From: a bacterium
GTDB taxonomy: Bacteria > Patescibacteriota > Doudnabacteria > UBA920
DNA length: 64,000 bases
Direction: 5' to 3'
NCBI GenBank assembly: GCA_021825655.1
Contig: JAKAGU010000001.1
Coordinates: forward strand, 50,358-114,357
The translations under genes were made by a program, and so were the position numbers. Each line of letters opens with the position of its first letter. The first letter of the stretch is position 1. Shown here one piece after another: positions 2,633 through 59,767 of this stretch. The notes under the pieces were generated by a model that was given only the letters and a program-made list of their open reading frames with translations, searched no databases and was not told where the DNA came from.

Positions 2633-3979
2633 CTATATAAACAGTTTATCCAGAATTAAATCCATCTCCTGTTTGAAGCCGTCTTTATCCTTAACTAAAG
2701 TCTCCATTTTTTCTACTGCATGCATTACAGTCGTGTGGTCACGCCCCCCAAAAAAATCACCAATTGAAGGGAAGGAGCTGTCCAGCTCCCGGCGAATAAG
2801 ATACATGGCTATCTGCCTTGGTTTTACAAATTCTTTTTTTCGCGACTGTTTTACCAGGTCTTCCATAGAGATGTTGTAGAATTCGGCGACCACCTCGGCA
2901 ATTTTTTTCGCTGAGGTGACTTTCTTTTTAGCCCCGACAATACTGGCCAAAATCCCTTTAGCCTGCTCCAAAACCAACCCCCGGTTATCCATTTGTTGAT
3001 AAATCGCCAGGCGGTTAAGTGCCCCTTCCAACTCTCGAACGTTATTTTGGATGTTTTCCGCGATATAAAAGAGGATTTCTTCCGGCATCTGCACCCCGCG
3101 TTTTTCCATTTTAGTGCGTAAAATTGCCATGCGGGTTTCGAGATCGGGCGCTTGGATATCCGCAATCATCCCCCACTCAAACCGGGAGATCAGCCGCTGT
3201 TCTATGGCCGGAATTTCTTTCGGCGGCCGGTCGGAGGTGATGATGATTTGCTTTCCGTTGTCGCGTAATTCGTTGAAAGTATGGAAAAATTCTTCCTGGG
3301 TGCCTTCCTTGCCCGCCAAAAATTGGATATCGTCTATAAGCAAAGCATCCACTTCACGGTAGGCTTTTTTAAAATCATCCATGCGCTTCTGGCTGATAGC
3401 GTTAATATAGTCGTTGGTAAATTTTTCACTTGTAACATATAGAATTTTTTTATGGCTGGATTCCAGAATGCGGTGCCCCACAGCCTGCATTAAATGGGTT
3501 TTACCTAAACCCACCCCGCCGTAAATGAAGAGCGGGTTGTATTGCGTGCCCGGATTTTTTGCCACAGCCTGGCTGGCTGCGTGGGCAAGCTCGTTATTTT
3601 TTCCGATTATCAGGGTTTCAAAAGTGTATTTTGGGTTTAAACCAGAGGTAAAAGCCGAGGGTCTCTCCTTGGTAAGGCCGGCACTCTCGGATTTTTTGAA
3701 CATATTGGTTTGCTGGCTGGCCTGTGTTGTGGGTTGGTTGCCAAGTTGGTATCTAATTTCTTTAATCTCTGGGGCAATCCCTTTCAGGCTTTTAAGCATT
3801 TCTTGGTGGTACTTAGCAGAAATCCAGTCGCGGTTGAAAGCGCTGGGTACGCCGATGATGATATGGTCCGCACCTCTTTCTAGGATGAGTGTGTTCTTAA
3901 ACCAGGTATTAAAGTTGGCCTTGCTCAGTGAAACTTCTAGACTGCCTAAGATTGCTTGCCAGAGCTGCTGATTAGTCAT
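2633..3979 (-). CDS. dnaA: Chromosomal replication initiator DnaA
   Basis: 448 aa with AAA+ Walker A ([10 protein letters not shown]) and the C-terminal DnaA DNA-binding signature. Confidence 0.95.
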
Positions 3980-4234
3980 ACTTTTGTTTCTAAAAATGGC
4001 GGTTCAATGGTTAAAAACACGTGTCTTATCTATTCTAACAGCCAGTTATCAACATGTAAAATTCATTTTTTTGCGCTTATTAATAAGGAAAAACTATTTA
4101 TCTGTTTATATCGTGTGGATAAATTGTGGGTTGGTCCAGGTTCCGAATTATCTTTGGCTTAGAATTGACTTTAACACCTGTTTTTTAGTATAATTAGCCA
4201 AGATATTATTAAAAAGTGAGAGAGGATTTCGCGT
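3980..4234. promoter_or_regulatory. rpmH-dnaA intergenic region with DnaA boxes and rpmH promoter
   Basis: Perfect DnaA box TGTGGATAA (reverse complement of TTATCCACA) at about 4114-4122. TTATCAACA at about 4046-4054 and several TTATCT-type half matches. rpmH promoter TTGACT, 18 nt spacer, TATAAT at about 4165-4194. Confidence 0.6.
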
Positions 4235-4378: not shown

Positions 4379-4735
4379 GTGATGTTTAAAAAAGAACACC
4401 GCCTGGCCAAAACCAAAGATGTAAAAGCGGCATTTGAGCAAGGTCGGGGTTTTTTTAACCCTTATTTTTCAGTCAGGCATAATGCCAAAACAGGGCAGCA
4501 AAGGCGTTTTACAGTCGTGGTTTCTACTAAAGTGTCAAAAAACGCCACCCGACGTAATCGTTTAAAAAGGTTAGTAAGAGAGTTTGCCCGCATAAATATG
4601 GCAAATTTTTTACCCGGTGACTATATTTTGGCCTTAAAACCAAAAGCCAACCAATTACCAGACCCAGAAGTGGTGGTGGTTTTGAGTAAGCTCCTTATCC
4701 AAGCCAAAGTTTATGAAAATAAGAGAATTGTCTAA
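4379..4735 (+). CDS. rnpA: Ribonuclease P protein component
   Basis: 118 aa basic protein with an RnpA-like RNR motif region, immediately after rpmH. The first Met in the ORF track is a GTG. Confidence 0.85.
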   Translation: MMFKKEHRLAKTKDVKAAFEQGRGFFNPYFSVRHNAKTGQQRRFTVVVSTKVSKNATRRNRLKRLVREFARINMANFLPGDYILALKPKANQLPDPEVVVVLSKLLIQAKVYENKRIV

Positions 4736-4985: not shown

Positions 4986-5696
4986 ATGTTTCTTGTTTCT
5001 CTGTACAACGAAATCATCTATCGTCCCCTTCTAAACCTTTTGGTTTATTTTTACCACTACATTCCCGATATTGGAGTGGTGATTGTGCTTTTAACCATAC
5101 TGATTAGGCTGCTTATGGCGCCCAGCTTCCATAAGTCTTTAAAGAGCCAGAAGGCAATGACCGAGCTGCAGCCTAAGCTTAATGAGGTTAAGGAAAAGTA
5201 TAAGGATGACAAGGAAGGCCAGGCGCGGGCTATGATGCAGTTGTATAAAGACCACCAAATTAACCCGCTTTCTTCCTGTTTGCCTCTTTTGGTCCAGTTT
5301 CCCATCTTAATTGCCCTTTATCAGGTTTTCAGCAAGGCTTTAAACAATCACTTAACCGGTTTGTATGCTTTTGTACCCAAACCGGAGACCATCAACCCCT
5401 TCTTTTTACACCTAATGGATTTGTCCAAACCCAGCATAGTTTTGGGCGTGCTAGCCGGCTTGGCCCAGTTCTGGCAGTCGAAAATGATGCTGCCCAAAAC
5501 TTCAGCAGCTTCGCAGGATGCAACCACCAAAGCAATTCAGATGCAAACCACCTATTTTTTGCCTATTGTTTCCGTGGTGATTGCCATTAAGTTGCCGGCT
5601 GGCCTGCCTTTGTACTGGCTGGTGACAACTCTCTTCGCCGTCGGCCAGCAGTATTGGCTGGTGAAAAGACAGCAACCCCAGGCTCCGCGTTCTTAA
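4986..5696 (+). CDS. yidC: Membrane protein insertase YidC/Oxa1 family (short form)
   Basis: 236 aa polytopic protein of Oxa1/YidC type in conserved rnpA-yidD-yidC synteny. Confidence 0.85.
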   Translation: MFLVSLYNEIIYRPLLNLLVYFYHYIPDIGVVIVLLTILIRLLMAPSFHKSLKSQKAMTELQPKLNEVKEKYKDDKEGQARAMMQLYKDHQINPLSSCLPLLVQFPILIALYQVFSKALNNHLTGLYAFVPKPETINPFFLHLMDLSKPSIVLGVLAGLAQFWQSKMMLPKTSAASQDATTKAIQMQTTYFLPIVSVVIAIKLPAGLPLYWLVTTLFAVGQQYWLVKRQQPQAPRS

Positions 5697-5764: not shown

Positions 5765-6235
5765 ATGACCGACTACAATAAGATAGAAGCCGTCAAACAG
5801 ATAATCGGCCAAACCTTAGACCATCTCGGCGTACCCGGCAAGGTGGAGTTTGAAGAAAGTATTACCAAAGGGCTGATTTTTAATATTTCTTCCCCGGAAT
5901 CTTTTATGTTGATCGGCCGCCAGGGCGCCACCCTGCATGCTTTGCAGGTTTTGGTGCAGAATATCGCCGTCAAACAATTGGGCGGCCAGGAGCCGTTTTG
6001 GTTTACCTTAGACGTGGATGATTATAAGCGCAAGCGGGAATGGTATTTGAAAGAAACAGCCAAAGCTGCGGTAGACCATTTGAAAAAAACCGATAAGCCG
6101 GTGCGGCTGGAGTCGATGCCGGCTTACGAGCGCCGGTTTGTACATGCTTATCTGCAGGAGCATTTTCCCGATGTGGAAAGCGAGAGCCAGGGCGAAGACC
6201 CCCATCGGAAAATTGTTATTCGGTTTAGACGCTAA
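5765..6235 (+). CDS. jag: Jag/KhpB-like RNA-binding protein (KH plus R3H domains)
   Basis: 156 aa with a C-terminal R3H-like motif (ERRFVHAYL...HRKIVI). Conserved position after yidC. Confidence 0.75.
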   Translation: MTDYNKIEAVKQIIGQTLDHLGVPGKVEFEESITKGLIFNISSPESFMLIGRQGATLHALQVLVQNIAVKQLGGQEPFWFTLDVDDYKRKREWYLKETAKAAVDHLKKTDKPVRLESMPAYERRFVHAYLQEHFPDVESESQGEDPHRKIVIRFRR

Positions 6236-17698: not shown

Positions 17699-17774
17699 GC
17701 GCGCGTAGCTCAGTTGGTAGAGCGGACGTCTTATACACGTCTGGTCCCAGGTTCGAGTCCTGGCGCGCGCACCA
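17699..17774 (+). tRNA. tRNA-Ile (anticodon UAU), CCA encoded
   Basis: Folded by hand: acceptor gcgcgcg/cgcgcgc, D-arm gctc-agttggta-gagc, anticodon stem gacgt/acgtc, loop cTTATac (U33, anticodon TAT, A37), T-arm ccagg-ttcgagt-cctgg, then ACCA. Confidence 0.8.
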
Positions 17775-56340: not shown

Positions 56341-58797
56341 ATGCAAGCTATGGGCACTGACAGACAAAGAAAATTAGCCAAAACTGGTTTTGTAAAGACT
56401 ATGAAAAAGCCTGGTATAAAAAAAATTGTTGAACCAGAAAACGAGGATGACGGCGCGCCGGTTTATTGCAGTCTGGATATTGAAACTACCGGTTTTGATC
56501 CGCTGACTGAAGAGATTTTGGAAGTCGGGTTCGTTTTCTTTAAAGCAACATCCGAGGGCCTGAAGCCGTTTCAGGAGTGGACTCAGGTTTTTTGCCCCAG
56601 CAAGCCGGTCAGTCCGAAAATTCTTGGCTTGACCGGGATTACTCCCAAAGAGCTGGCGGCCGCCCCGCAGTTTAAGGAGTTTAAAGATTTTTTGCAGGAA
56701 AAACTTGGCAATGCGGTGATTGTCGGCCACAACATAGCGTTCGATATTAAATTTTTGGAAAATTTCGGGATTAAGTTTTCTGGGGGCCAGCTGGATACTT
56801 TAGAGCTGGTGCAGTGGCTGCTGCCTTCCCACCATTCGTACAACCTGGAAAACTTGATGCACTTTTTTAAAATCCCTCATGAAGAGGCTCACCGGGCATT
56901 GGCTGACGCCAAAGCCGCGTTGCTGGTTTTGGAAAAACTTCTAGGACTTTATGCCGGGCTGCCCAGCCAAACCAGCGCCAGAATTTTAGAAATTGTCAAA
57001 CCTTTTCATTTTTCCTGGGCGCGGCTGCTTCCGGCTGCGGCCAATTTTAAGCCAAAGGCAGCGGCTTTGGGCAAAAAAAAAGCCCCGGAACGCAAAAAAC
57101 CAGCGAAGGCTGCCGGGGAATTCGAAGCTTTTAAACTTGCTCCGGGGATTTTGTATGACTTTCCTCTGTTTTCGCAGTATGCCGGTTGTTTGCTGGAAAA
57201 ACTAAAAGCCGCAAAACGCAAGAGTTTGCTGGTTGTGCCAAAGAAACAGCAAGTGATGGACATTTGGCGCTCCGGCCAGGCCCAAAGCGTATTTTTACCT
57301 GCTGAAAGTTTTGACCCCGCGCGTTTTGAAGCCATGCTGAATAAGGGCCAGCACACGCCGGAAGAAGCTAAGTTCTTGCTCAAGCTTTTGGTCTGGCAGG
57401 CTACGAATTGGCAACAACAGGGCTTGGGCGATTTAAACCTCACTTTTTTTGGAGGCCAGTTCAAATCCGCCGTTGCCCGGAGCGAGTTTTTGTTGGACGA
57501 AACAGCCAAGGTTTGGGTATGCGACACCCACACTTTTTTATCGCTGAGCCGCAATGGCGGGGCGCTGGCCGAACGCCTGGTCACGGTCATAGGCTTGCCT
57601 GAACTGGAAAACGCTTTAAGCCTGGGAATTAGCCACCGGGTTTCGTGGAGTTTTATCACCTATCTGCTAAAGTCCTATTACAATCCGGAAACTCAGACAG
57701 GCAGCCTAAGCTATGAAGCTACGGTGCAGAACGCCATTAATGAGGCCGATTTATTTTTTGGCTTGGCTAACGCTCTTTTAAAACAGAATCCCGCGGGGTT
57801 TGAATATTTTAAGGTTTTACCCGGCACGGAGCAGGCGGATAATTTTCAAAAGGTGAAACAAGCAGCCGCAAATTACGCTTTGAAATTATTGGAAACAGCG
57901 CAAAGCCTTGAAGCCGAAGCCTTGGCGGACACGGCGCGCAATTTGCAGGCATTTTTTGAAAACGTGCCCAATAGAGTAAAGTGGGTTGAATTGGCAGAGG
58001 GCCGTTGCATTTTTTATGACAATCCGGTGAATTTGAAAGAGCCTATGGAACGGGTAACGGCGGCCTGCGGCCAGTTGTGCTTTGCCGACAGCCTGTCCCA
58101 GCCCAAGGTGGTGGAGCTGTTTTTGTCCCGCTTGGGCCTGGATACTTTAAAAGTTAAAGGGGTACAGGCTGCTGCCCAGACCAGGCGTTTGCTCCAAGGT
58201 GATCTGTTTTCAGGCTGGCTGGGCCGGATAAAAGCCGAATGCCAGCTGCAGGCCAGCGGGCTTTTAGATTCTGAACTTAAGGCCTACCTGCAGCCCAGCA
58301 GCTTGCCTGCTGCGGTCCTGTTTGCCGGTCCCTTACAGGTTAAGGAATTTTATGAGAAGAACTACGAAGATCTCCAGGCGTATGCCAATGTCTTGAGCCA
58401 AAACCATTCCGGAGGCAGTAACAAGCTTTTTAGGAACTTTGAAATTTATCCGGAAAGCATCTTGCTGGCCACAGACAAGCTGATTTTGAAATATTTGACC
58501 GAGTCCGCGGGCAGCGCCTTAGATTTTTTGTCTGTAAAAACTCTGATTTTGGGCCACCTGCCTTTTGAACAGTACACGCACCCCTATTTGGAAGCGGTAG
58601 CAGGCACCTATGAACGGCCGTTTGAACAGTTCAGTCTGCCTCGGGCTGTATACAATTTAATCAGAATTTTACGCTTTTTCTATACTAACAAGCTAAAACA
58701 CGTGGTAATAGCCGACCCTAAGCTTTCTAAGGAATATGCCAGTGCCTTTGTTGCTTTGGTCCAAAAAATCCCGGGTTTTCGGGTTAAAGTGGGTTAA
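56341..58797 (+). CDS. DinG-like protein: N-terminal DEDDh 3'-5' exonuclease domain fused to a Rad3/DinG-like helicase-like domain with degenerate ATPase motifs
   Basis: 818 aa. Exo I DIETTG, Exo II HNIAFDIKFL and Exo III HRALADAKA are intact. The C-terminal ~600 aa resemble the DinG helicase C-region (motif VI-like RILRFFYTNKLKHVVIADPKL, motif V-like AAVLFAGPL) but no Walker A GxGKT/S is found, and WVCDTHTF replaces DEAH. Confidence 0.6.
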   Translation: MQAMGTDRQRKLAKTGFVKTMKKPGIKKIVEPENEDDGAPVYCSLDIETTGFDPLTEEILEVGFVFFKATSEGLKPFQEWTQVFCPSKPVSPKILGLTGITPKELAAAPQFKEFKDFLQEKLGNAVIVGHNIAFDIKFLENFGIKFSGGQLDTLELVQWLLPSHHSYNLENLMHFFKIPHEEAHRALADAKAALLVLEKLLGLYAGLPSQTSARILEIVKPFHFSWARLLPAAANFKPKAAALGKKKAPERKKPAKAAGEFEAFKLAPGILYDFPLFSQYAGCLLEKLKAAKRKSLLVVPKKQQVMDIWRSGQAQSVFLPAESFDPARFEAMLNKGQHTPEEAKFLLKLLVWQATNWQQQGLGDLNLTFFGGQFKSAVARSEFLLDETAKVWVCDTHTFLSLSRNGGALAERLVTVIGLPELENALSLGISHRVSWSFITYLLKSYYNPETQTGSLSYEATVQNAINEADLFFGLANALLKQNPAGFEYFKVLPGTEQADNFQKVKQAAANYALKLLETAQSLEAEALADTARNLQAFFENVPNRVKWVELAEGRCIFYDNPVNLKEPMERVTAACGQLCFADSLSQPKVVELFLSRLGLDTLKVKGVQAAAQTRRLLQGDLFSGWLGRIKAECQLQASGLLDSELKAYLQPSSLPAAVLFAGPLQVKEFYEKNYEDLQAYANVLSQNHSGGSNKLFRNFEIYPESILLATDKLILKYLTESAGSALDFLSVKTLILGHLPFEQYTHPYLEAVAGTYERPFEQFSLPRAVYNLIRILRFFYTNKLKHVVIADPKLSKEYASAFVALVQKIPGFRVKVG

Positions 58798-58918
58798 TTC
58801 AACAGGTTATCCACAAGTTATAAAAAAGCATTATAATAGCTTAAATCAGCATATTTAATCAAGAAAATTTGAATTTTTCTTATAAATAAGCCATTTATTT
58901 TTAGCATCAGAGCATATT

Positions 58919-58952
58919 CTTGACACGCCGTAAATACCCTGATATGATGAAT
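58919..58952 (+). promoter_or_regulatory. Near-consensus sigma70-type promoter
   Basis: TTGACA, 17 nt spacer, TATGAT. Perfect DnaA boxes at about 58808-58816 (TTATCCACA) and about 58963-58971 (TGTGGATAA) flank it. Confidence 0.5.
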
Positions 58953-58954
58953 AT

Positions 58955-59395
58955 ACTGAAGTTGTGGATAAAGAGCACTTTAAAAACTCAATAACTGGAC
59001 TGAGGAAAATAGCCTTAAATTGTTGAGATTGAAGGTTGCTTTCCTCTTAACTCCTCGTCATAGCCTGTCCAATCCAGGCTGATTGCAAAACAAAAACAAA
59101 AAAATGAAGTTGCCTCTCATCCCCATGAAGGCAAAAGGCTGTTTCAAAATAAAACATGCCCCAAAAATTGTTAGGTCTTCGGACCCCAAGAGGAGTTTTG
59201 AGTGCAGTTTTAAAGCAGATTGGGCATAAAACGCTTCTCTTTGGCTGTTATGCCAAAGAAGGCCTGAATCGCCAGAGTGTTGGCTTCTGCGTAACTAGTT
59301 TACGCGGATACCATCCGAGTGATTTGGGTTACAAGCGCCCAAGGACGGCTGACATATTATTTTAATTTGCAGCGCCCGTCGGGGCGCTTTTTCAT
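58955..59395 (+). ncRNA. Candidate unclassified structured RNA (~440 nt) or long regulatory leader
   Basis: No ORF of 60 aa or more on either strand across about 660 bp. Bounded by a consensus promoter and an intrinsic terminator (AGCGCCCgtcgGGGCGCTttttc). Contains at least five perfect hairpins (agcctg/caggct, GGTC-UUCG-GACC, ctttggc/gccaaag, gcgtaa/ttacgc, and the terminator). Confidence 0.3.
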
Positions 59396-59461
59396 TTGTA
59401 TTGGAATTTCGGGTGGGTTATAATATCGGCACAGCCTAAAAAATTTAAAAAGACTCTATAT

Positions 59462-59767
59462 ATGTTATCGCAAACATTTGTTGAAGAAATGAAGCAGAAG
59501 CTGCTTGACGCCAAGGCCAAGTTTGAGCAGGACCTGGCCGGGCTTTCGCCGCACACCGAGCTCGGCAACGGCATGGACGAAAGCGCTGAAGAGCTGGAAA
59601 TAGACGAGGTTAACCAGGATATGATTGTGCGCCTCAATGCGGATCTGGCAAAAATTGCCAAAGCCCTGGAGAAAATTGAAAAGGGCACCTACGGTACGGA
59701 TGACGCGGGCCAGGAAATTACCGAAGCCCGGCTGAAAGCTTTACCCTGGGCTGACAAGGCAATGTAA
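59462..59767 (+). CDS. DksA/TraR (YocK-like) family protein lacking the Cys4 zinc finger
   Basis: Start at the internal ATG (MLSQTFVEEMKQKLLD...). The C-terminal EKIEKGTYGTDDAGQEITEARLKALPWA aligns with the DksA/TraR zinc-finger region, but all Cys are replaced. Confidence 0.5.
   Translation: MLSQTFVEEMKQKLLDAKAKFEQDLAGLSPHTELGNGMDESAEELEIDEVNQDMIVRLNADLAKIAKALEKIEKGTYGTDDAGQEITEARLKALPWADKAM

Follow-up and report, generated by a model that had tools for sequence, protein, structure and literature searches.

A probable DnaA-gated gene for a large structured non-coding RNA in a Doudnabacteria-like lineage of Patescibacteria

OLE, GOLLD, ROOL, raiA and HEARO are large structured orphan non-coding RNAs (ncRNAs) of bacteria, characterized by covarying helices, tertiary contacts, a narrow range and stand-alone genes. 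CrcZ and CrcY of Pseudomonas are protein-sequestering RNAs that bind Hfq via AAnAAnAA motifs. The replication initiator DnaA regulates a number of promoters, including those of dnaA, nrdAB, mioC, guaB and rpoH in E. coli and of dnaA and sda in B. subtilis, and several E. coli promoters are known to be repressed through DnaA boxes at or past the start of transcription. To our knowledge, there is no precedent for a large ncRNA controlled by DnaA, and phased DnaA boxes around the promoter are not known from the OLE, GOLLD, ROOL, raiA or HEARO classes. The element described here lies in a 64,000-nucleotide stretch of Doudnabacteria DNA (GenBank assembly GCA_021825655.1, contig JAKAGU010000001.1, positions 50,358 to 114,357; hereafter the window, with positions counted from its first letter). 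Positions 58955-59392 of the + strand are probably an independent gene for a new, highly structured ncRNA that acts in trans and whose transcription is gated by DnaA.

The predicted RNA is ~438 nt long in the window and 443-578 nt long in its homologues, counted from 3 nt after the -10 element. It resembles OLE, GOLLD, ROOL, raiA and HEARO in its size of several hundred nucleotides, its many covarying helices and kissing contact, its narrow range and its stand-alone gene. It differs from them in that it does not match their Rfam 15 models and is found in a phylum of the candidate phyla radiation (CPR). The gene falls within the longest stretch of the window that has no open reading frame (ORF) of at least 100 amino acids (58798-59461). 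An earlier note on this DNA, made from its letters alone, had called this the longest non-coding stretch of the window and had described in it a near-consensus sigma70 promoter, two perfect DnaA boxes, several perfect-stem hairpins (including GGTC-UUCG-GACC) and an intrinsic terminator. The region is indeed the longest of its kind, and nearly all of the features are present where the note placed them; the one detail that proved wrong concerns the size of the ORFs, as discussed below.

Homologues were drawn from 4 genome loci, 16 metagenome loci (recognized by the RNA-core pattern TCGTCATAGCNNNTCCAATCNNNGCTG) and 10 loci reached via helicase homologues (39-47% identity). One of the genome loci (L001) is cut off after ~140 nt of the RNA. 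Removal of duplicates left 27 distinct RNA sequences, those of the window and 26 homologues on Patescibacteria contigs (one of which, L006, is cut at the 5' end). Promoter, fold and terminator recur in the homologues. As far as sampled, the RNA appears to be confined to a Doudnabacteria-like lineage of Patescibacteria, and it is single-copy within the window.

The structured RNA is supported by strong covariation. RNAalifold was run on 17 and then on 27 sequences and gave a consistent multi-domain fold from both. The kissing loop was added as a pseudoknot, three small clashing or doubtful helices were dropped and pairs were counted on the alignment A3. The resulting structure model has 112 pairs in 13 helices. 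Standard pairs make up 92.2% of its cells (82.7 +/- 0.4% in shuffles), and 59 of its pairs show changes on both sides (38.3 +/- 3.0 in shuffles, with 0/500 shuffles reaching 59). Double-change cells number 307 in the model and 108 in shuffles, while the covariation score is 0.348 for the model, 0.177 for shuffles and 0.06-0.11 when partners are slid by 1-3 columns. Folding of the single sequence agrees: 58955-59396 (+) has a minimum free energy of -145 kcal/mol, compared to -114.7 +/- 5.7 for dinucleotide shuffles (z = -5.36, with 0/100 shuffles as good), whereas the minus strand folds less well (z = -3.86). The + strand can be taken as the RNA strand because certain G-U pairs are invariant (for example columns 634:697, U-G in 27/27 sequences).

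The 5' core of the RNA is closed by two long-range helices that stack on each other. H0 (58975-58983, GCACTTTAA, with 59197-59205, TTTGAGTGC; predicted by RNAalifold on A3) is paired in 93.5% of cells and shows only one-sided changes (GC/GU, UA/UG), with no double changes. H2 (59050-59056, ACTCCTC, with 59190-59196, GAGGAGT) is 98.9% paired, and three of its seven pairs show double changes (such as CUCCUC/GAGGAG versus CUUUUC/GAGAAG). H1 (59002-59046) is a hairpin of 17 pairs, nine with compensatory changes; its base (GAGGAAA/TTTCCTC) is invariant, and its tip varies, with a 100-nt insertion in L019. H2 encloses H3, an A-rich tract, variable hairpins and H4. In the H3 hairpin (TAGCCTG-TCCAATC-CAGGCTG, 59061-59081), three pairs covary; columns 350:359, for instance, are AU in 16 sequences and GC in 11. 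H4 is the GGTC-TTCG-GACC hairpin (59174-59185), with a base that is 96% paired and a fourth pair that is GC in 11 sequences, CG in 5 and AU in 1. Beyond H0 lies the H5 hairpin (GTTTTA...TAAAAC, 59207-59232), whose conserved loop GATTGGG is the partner of the H3 loop. This contact is a 7-bp kissing loop (59068-59074, UCCAAUC, with 59218-59224, GAUUGGG) that is 97.4% paired. It is CCAACC/GGUUGG in L030, a compensatory change from U-A to C-G, and L026 has the U-G intermediate. H6 (GCTTCTCTTTGGC...GCCAAAGAAGG, 59233-59262) has a perfect stem in the window and three pairs with double changes, and it is followed by the long 3' arm H7-H9 (59263-59327), in which 33 of 37 pairs are compensatory (helices 9-11 of the model). 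A tip helix (H10) and a GUUU/GCA internal loop are present in most homologues and missing from the window copy.

The A-rich tract of the 5' core (CAAAACAAAAACAAAAAAA, 59086-59106) is nearly invariant and single-stranded and consists of AAN triplets followed by TG. It is the most conserved unpaired segment of the RNA (CAAAACAAAAACAAAAA; columns A136-A151 of A3 are invariant) and is unpaired in all predicted folds. No pairing partner was found for it, as the invariant columns yield no covariation signal. In several homologues, H4 is preceded by a second tract, rich in CAAAA. As an (AAN)n tract displayed by a rigid core, the segment is a candidate interaction surface, and this is where CrcZ and CrcY offer the closest comparison. 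Like them, the RNA is a ~400-nt stand-alone transcript with a regulated promoter and a terminator and with unpaired (AAN)n tracts (AACAAAAACAAAAA) between hairpins. Unlike them, it has only one or two such tracts rather than about six, and its tertiary structure is more elaborate; the Rfam CrcZ model is not matched and the RNAs are not homologous. The leading guess for the role of the RNA, which is speculative and made by analogy, is protein sequestration, and proteins such as Hfq or S1 would suit the (AAN)n tract. The RNA could just as well be a ribozyme or a scaffold.

On sequence grounds, the boundaries of the gene are clear at both ends. Upstream is the sigma70-type promoter (58920-58948, + strand), with a -35 element TTGACA (58920-58925), a 17-bp spacer and a -10 element TATGAT (58943-58948). 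It matches the consensus at 11 of 12 positions and has, in addition, an extended -10 TG at 58940-58941 (TGaTATGAT). Transcription would start near A58955. The TTGACA element and extended-TG -10 (TGnTAnnAT) are kept in 26/27 loci, a TTGACG variant also occurs and the spacer is 17 bp at every locus measured. Only nine promoters in the window score at least 11/12. The other eight are at 4165, 15174, 17571, 27213, 28366, 30729, 40884 and 41777, and by gene coordinates six of them precede tRNA genes or the rpmH/rnpA region by ~40-130 nt. Judged by these positions, promoters close to the consensus seem to mark stable-RNA and ribosomal genes in this genome, and a promoter of the same grade as those of tRNA genes fits a highly expressed stable RNA. 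Approximately 30-40 bp upstream of the -35 element is a conserved AT-rich palindrome (CTTATAAATAAG, 58879-58890), for which 25 loci aligned on their -35 elements give the consensus cTT.TAaatAag. The perfect palindrome is longer at several loci (such as CCTTCTTATATAAGAAGG in L023), and in some homologues a T-run comes after it. Candidate roles are a second regulator site, an UP-like element and the remnant terminator of the upstream gene.

The promoter is flanked by two DnaA boxes without mismatches. The upstream box (TTATCCACA, 58807-58815, + strand) begins 113 bp upstream of the first base of the -35 element, and the downstream box (58963-58971, - strand; TGTGGATAA on the + strand), at about +9 to +17 of the transcript, is inverted relative to it. 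Perfect TTATCCACA boxes occur only three times in the window: at these two positions (58807 and 58963) and at 4114, in the oriC region. The genome encodes a canonical DnaA, and the same 9-mer is used at the dnaA/dnaN origin region. DnaA-box-like 9-mers (up to one mismatch) are not enriched across the window (16 found versus 11.6 expected), so the significance of the boxes rests on their conservation across loci rather than on their number. A perfect TTATCCACA is found upstream of the -35 element in 26/27 loci, at 112/113 bp in 22 and at 102/103 bp in 4, and never at distances between these. The AT-rich spacer separating this box from the promoter is not conserved in sequence, but its length keeps the helical phase. 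The inverted box (TGTGGAnAA, up to one mismatch) is present in 21/27 loci, where it lies +43 to +45 from the -35 start. This corresponds to about +9 to +18 of the transcript; the two boxes are thus at approximately +13 and -144. The 5' leader around the downstream box varies in sequence and length. Local stems form there in some sequences, but no covarying leader hairpin consistent among the homologues was seen by eye at the +13 box.

The spacing between the two boxes is 156-158 bp or 148 bp, equivalent to about 15 or 14 helical turns. A difference of one whole turn is expected if proteins on both sites must face each other, and the maintenance of the phase throughout the lineage suggests looping. 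As in promoters of the DnaA regulon, consensus boxes lie near the promoter and are conserved at orthologous promoters. As at the described DnaA-regulated promoters, TTATCCACA lies close to a sigma70 promoter or overlaps it, and one box is shortly past the start, where bound DnaA could block RNA polymerase. The locus is unlike these promoters in that a large ncRNA would be controlled, and in having exactly two inverted boxes ~157 bp apart whose phase is kept (157 or 148 bp).

The mechanism considered most likely is as follows. Transcription would start at a near-consensus sigma70 promoter of tRNA-gene grade and end in the GC-rich terminator domain with its two tiers. The RNA would fold into a 5' core, closed by the stacked H0 and H2 helices, locked by the H3-H5 kissing loop and displaying the A-rich tract as its working surface, and a second part made up of the covarying 3' arm. 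DnaA bound at both inverted boxes, on the same face of the helix and probably with looping or oligomerisation, would repress or time transcription. At the downstream box (~+13), bound DnaA would act as a roadblock to promoter escape, while the phased upstream box would stabilise DnaA binding via looping or oligomerisation. The output of the RNA would in this way depend on how much free DnaA is present or on its nucleotide state, and would be coupled to the replication-initiation state.

The best surviving alternative, which was also raised in the earlier note, is that the transcript is a long cis-acting leader or attenuator. According to this explanation, it would act like a riboswitch on read-through into the DksA-like - lspA - comM - galU genes, with alternative pairings of the 3' arm as the switch. 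The RNA is directly upstream of the DksA-like operon and on the same strand at most loci, and its 3' end can indeed pair in two ways. The 3' terminator domain (59333-59392, + strand, with the T-run ending at 59392) is closed by the long-range helix alpha:gamma, formed directly before the T-run by alpha (AAGCGCCC, 59333-59340) and gamma (GGGCGCTT, 59382-59389). A small hairpin inside it (GACGG, 59344-59348, with CCGTC, 59376-59380) is inferred for the window only. Alpha:gamma forms 7-9 of 9 pairs in 27/27 sequences and has compensatory variants (AGCGCCUC/GAGGCGCU, AGCGGCC/GGCCGCU, AGCCCC/GGGGCU and AGGCCC/GGGCCU). A pairing of AGUGC with the 3' arm of the terminator, proposed in the first RNAalifold run, was dropped in favour of H0 and alpha:gamma, which show compatible or compensatory changes. 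Gamma can alternatively pair with a local arm, beta, to give a terminator-like hairpin (AGCGCCC-GTCG-GGGCGCT, 59371-59388) with a 7-bp GC-rich stem followed by the T-run; this stem is the intrinsic terminator that the earlier note had recognized.

The two pairings do not behave as a switch, however. In both, a GC-rich helix directly adjoins the U-tract, which leaves no antiterminator logic, and the mutually exclusive terminator and antiterminator of an attenuator or riboswitch were not found. A conserved GC-rich helix and U-tract end the RNA in all 27 sequences. The DksA-like gene also has a predicted promoter of its own (TTGTAT-17-TATAAT, 59396-59424, + strand), which lies beyond the RNA and marks a transcription-unit boundary. 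In 26/26 loci, the DNA from the RNA terminator to the next gene contains a separate promoter of this TTGnnn-17-TATAAT type (scored as a TTGnnn-16/18-TATAAT-like site). This promoter often overlaps the T-run and is at the same offset, ~2 nt past the RNA reference end, in approximately ten loci. The downstream gene would therefore not be expected to depend on the RNA promoter. In three lineages (L010/L012, L015/L018 and L020), the RNA is not followed by any recognisable DksA-like reading frame. Finally, a two-domain RNA of 440-580 nt that includes a kissing loop is far beyond the known leaders, and it matches no cis-regulatory family in Rfam. A leader or attenuator is for these reasons unlikely, and an independent RNA gene is preferred.

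An independent RNA gene could still belong to a described family, and the earlier note had looked by eye for the conserved blocks of RNase P RNA and transfer-messenger RNA (tmRNA) without finding either. Searches gave the same answer. Rfam 15 (4227 families) identified only tRNAs at the gathering score in the window and 19 homologous loci. The large ncRNA classes OLE, GOLLD, ROOL, raiA, HEARO and CrcZ were among the models without a match there. In E-value mode (E <= 10), the 1-kb region around the RNA gave only chance-level matches (E of about 1-8), and a permissive scan of the whole window (E <= 5) did not detect RNase P RNA, tmRNA, signal recognition particle (SRP) RNA or 6S RNA. The signature motifs of RNase P RNA, tmRNA and SRP RNA are not conserved among the 27 homologues. 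A tmRNA was rejected: ARAGORN makes no such prediction for the window or for 24 homologous loci, the 27 homologues have no conserved T-arm motif (their 3' end being the terminator helix) and there is no conserved tag-peptide frame. 6S RNA and Ms1 are similar in being stable RNAs with strong promoters, and the present RNA is encoded beside a gene for a DksA-like protein, DksA being a factor of the RNA polymerase secondary channel. In contrast to the ~180-nt 6S rod with its open-promoter-like central bubble, however, the present fold is branched and 2-3 times larger (440-580 nt), and the Rfam 6S model (RF00013) is not matched. No description of the RNA was found in the literature on structured RNAs of CPR bacteria, Patescibacteria or Doudnabacteria. 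Judged by these comparisons, the RNA appears to be new as a class and to belong to no described family.

The family that deserves most attention is RNase P RNA, as the transcript might be an extremely divergent rnpB of this lineage. The genome encodes RnpA (4379-4735, + strand; Pfam PF00825, E = 2.4e-19), and RNase P RNA was not detected in the 64 kb at E <= 5. RNase P RNAs of CPR bacteria are known for a divergence that takes them below Rfam thresholds (PMC8172020). The two RNAs are of the same size class, both have a strong promoter and a terminator, and the nested order of H0, the H1 hairpin and H2 recalls P2-P3-P4. The resemblance does not extend to the details. RF00010 and RF00011 are matched neither at the gathering score in the window and 19 loci nor at E <= 10 in the 1-kb region, where the search covered scores from ~14 bits upward. 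Approximate matches to CR-I (GAGGAAAGUCC) and CR-V (ACAGAA..GGCUUA) occur in 1/27 homologues each, at chance level and at non-homologous positions, and a P4-like conserved helix is accordingly missing. AAGGAAA forms the base of H1, a covarying hairpin, and is not a P4 strand. The domain enclosed by H2 contains only serial hairpins and the A-rich linker, and ~230 nt of conserved structure, including the large 3' arm, lie outside H0, unlike in RNase P RNA. The window represents only ~6% of a roughly 1-Mb genome, so the absence of rnpB from it is to be expected; the rnpB of the clade may be elsewhere in the genome or be divergent, as in other CPR genomes. It is thus very improbable that the transcript is rnpB.

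Equally improbable is that the DNA itself is the functional element, as a DnaA-titrating or -reactivating locus similar to datA or DARS or as a secondary origin, with the transcript being incidental. Two perfect, phase-locked boxes and an AT-rich spacer, conserved in 26/27 (upstream box) and 21/27 (downstream box) loci, would suit such an element. However, there are only two boxes, and the strongest conservation and covariation are in the 440-nt transcript rather than in the box region. One homologue (L030) keeps the RNA without any box. The chromosomal origin is probably in the dnaA-rnpA spacer, the dnaN-dnaA spacer or both, ~55 kb from the RNA locus. This part of the window encodes recF (208-1302, - strand), dnaN (1307-2407, -), dnaA (2633-3979, -), rnpA, yidC (4986-5696, +) and jag (5765-6235, +). 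DnaA-box-like sites are clustered there at 2459-2654 and 4046-4122, and the cumulative GC skew has its minimum near 4-6 kb, at the dnaA/dnaN neighbourhood. An origin or secondary origin at the RNA locus was rejected, as it has no box cluster and the skew stays positive without a change of sign.

The weakest alternative, that the region encodes one or more small proteins, can be dismissed almost entirely. The earlier note had stated that no ORF exceeds 41 codons, which is incorrect: there is an ATG ORF of 69 codons (59156-59365) and a TTG ORF of 48 codons (59083-59229), and an AUG follows the A-rich tract in most homologues. Across the 27 homologues, however, neither ORF keeps its frame, strand or position, and the longest ORFs differ in all three respects. 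In many sequences a UAG comes after the AUG, and L023 has AUA in its place; substitutions follow the pattern of base-paired helices. Because the ORFs are not conserved, the conclusion that the region is non-coding stands.

Of the two readings offered in the earlier note, the homologues, the covariation, the lack of an Rfam match and the phase-locked boxes therefore support that of an undescribed, DnaA-linked structured RNA, with DnaA binding and the link to replication being inferred, while the leader or attenuator is disfavoured. Several points weigh against an independent, DnaA-gated RNA gene. L030 lacks both DnaA boxes and five further loci lack the downstream box, and the retention of the RNA where boxes are lost indicates that DnaA control is not obligatory for its function. 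The +13 box lies inside the transcript, and an RNA-level role for UGUGGA is possible. The 27 sequences are one clade with a strongly conserved gene order. Part of the covariation reflects this shared ancestry, and synteny with recA, dinG, dksA and comM is for the same reason weak functional evidence. The 5' and 3' ends of the RNA are predicted only. Lastly, the presence of rnpA in a window in which RNase P RNA was not found counts in favour of a radically divergent rnpB, unlikely as this is. L030 (5278-5771) is a GC-rich relative whose promoter lies right against the end of the gene upstream, and it is also the sequence with the compensatory kissing-loop change.

The gene order at all homologous loci is recA - DEDDh exonuclease/DinG-like gene - RNA - 101-aa DksA-like gene - lspA - comM - galU. 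A viral or mobile origin of the RNA was rejected on the basis of this conserved chromosomal synteny and the absence of a match to the RNA core in IMG/VR. The upstream gene (56341-58797) encodes an 818-aa protein with an N-terminal DEDDh exonuclease domain (Pfam RNase_T). The remaining ~600 residues are DinG-like at best, without a confident domain, and relatives show faint matches to Helicase_C_2. These relatives are all from metagenome-assembled genomes of Patescibacteria, and those with names are "Candidatus Doudnabacteria". The downstream gene (59462-59767, + strand) encodes a 101-aa protein that matches solved DksA structures (PDB 6ptg, E = 5e-6). It has no Pfam match, and it matches the NCBIfam yteA/DksA models below threshold. 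The protein is a short form that lacks the zinc-finger cysteines and stops just past an LPWA motif, and "DksA-like" is a reasonable label given these similarities. Its family is small and tight, with 156 database matches, the best 120 of which are all at least 55% identical. Elsewhere in the window, ARAGORN predicts a tRNA-Ile with a UAU anticodon (17699-17774). This tRNA is unusual, as the AUA codon is read in most bacteria by a lysidine-modified CAU tRNA.

Large, intricately folded RNAs are rare in bacteria, and those that are understood have often revealed unexpected biochemistry. As the hosts of the present RNA are ultra-small and genome-reduced, with little non-coding DNA, a conserved RNA of 440-580 nt with a tRNA-grade promoter is very likely to be important to them. 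The alignment of 27 sequences, the structure model and the kissing loop provide a basis for an Rfam-style family, for look-ups in metatranscriptomes and for structure determination, and the phased DnaA sites give rise to a testable hypothesis, namely that the replication initiator controls a structured RNA. A more tentative suggestion, and one that is considerably less likely than the existence of the RNA gene, is that the RNA represents a new functional class, a DnaA-gated riboregulator, ribonucleoprotein scaffold or ribozyme that couples replication-initiation status to another process in CPR bacteria. In that case, the (AAN)n tract could sequester an RNA-binding protein, or the RNA could act on transcription with the adjacent DksA-like factor. 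If this is true, an RNA would link the initiation of replication to another process in CPR bacteria, from which most known cell-cycle regulators are missing.

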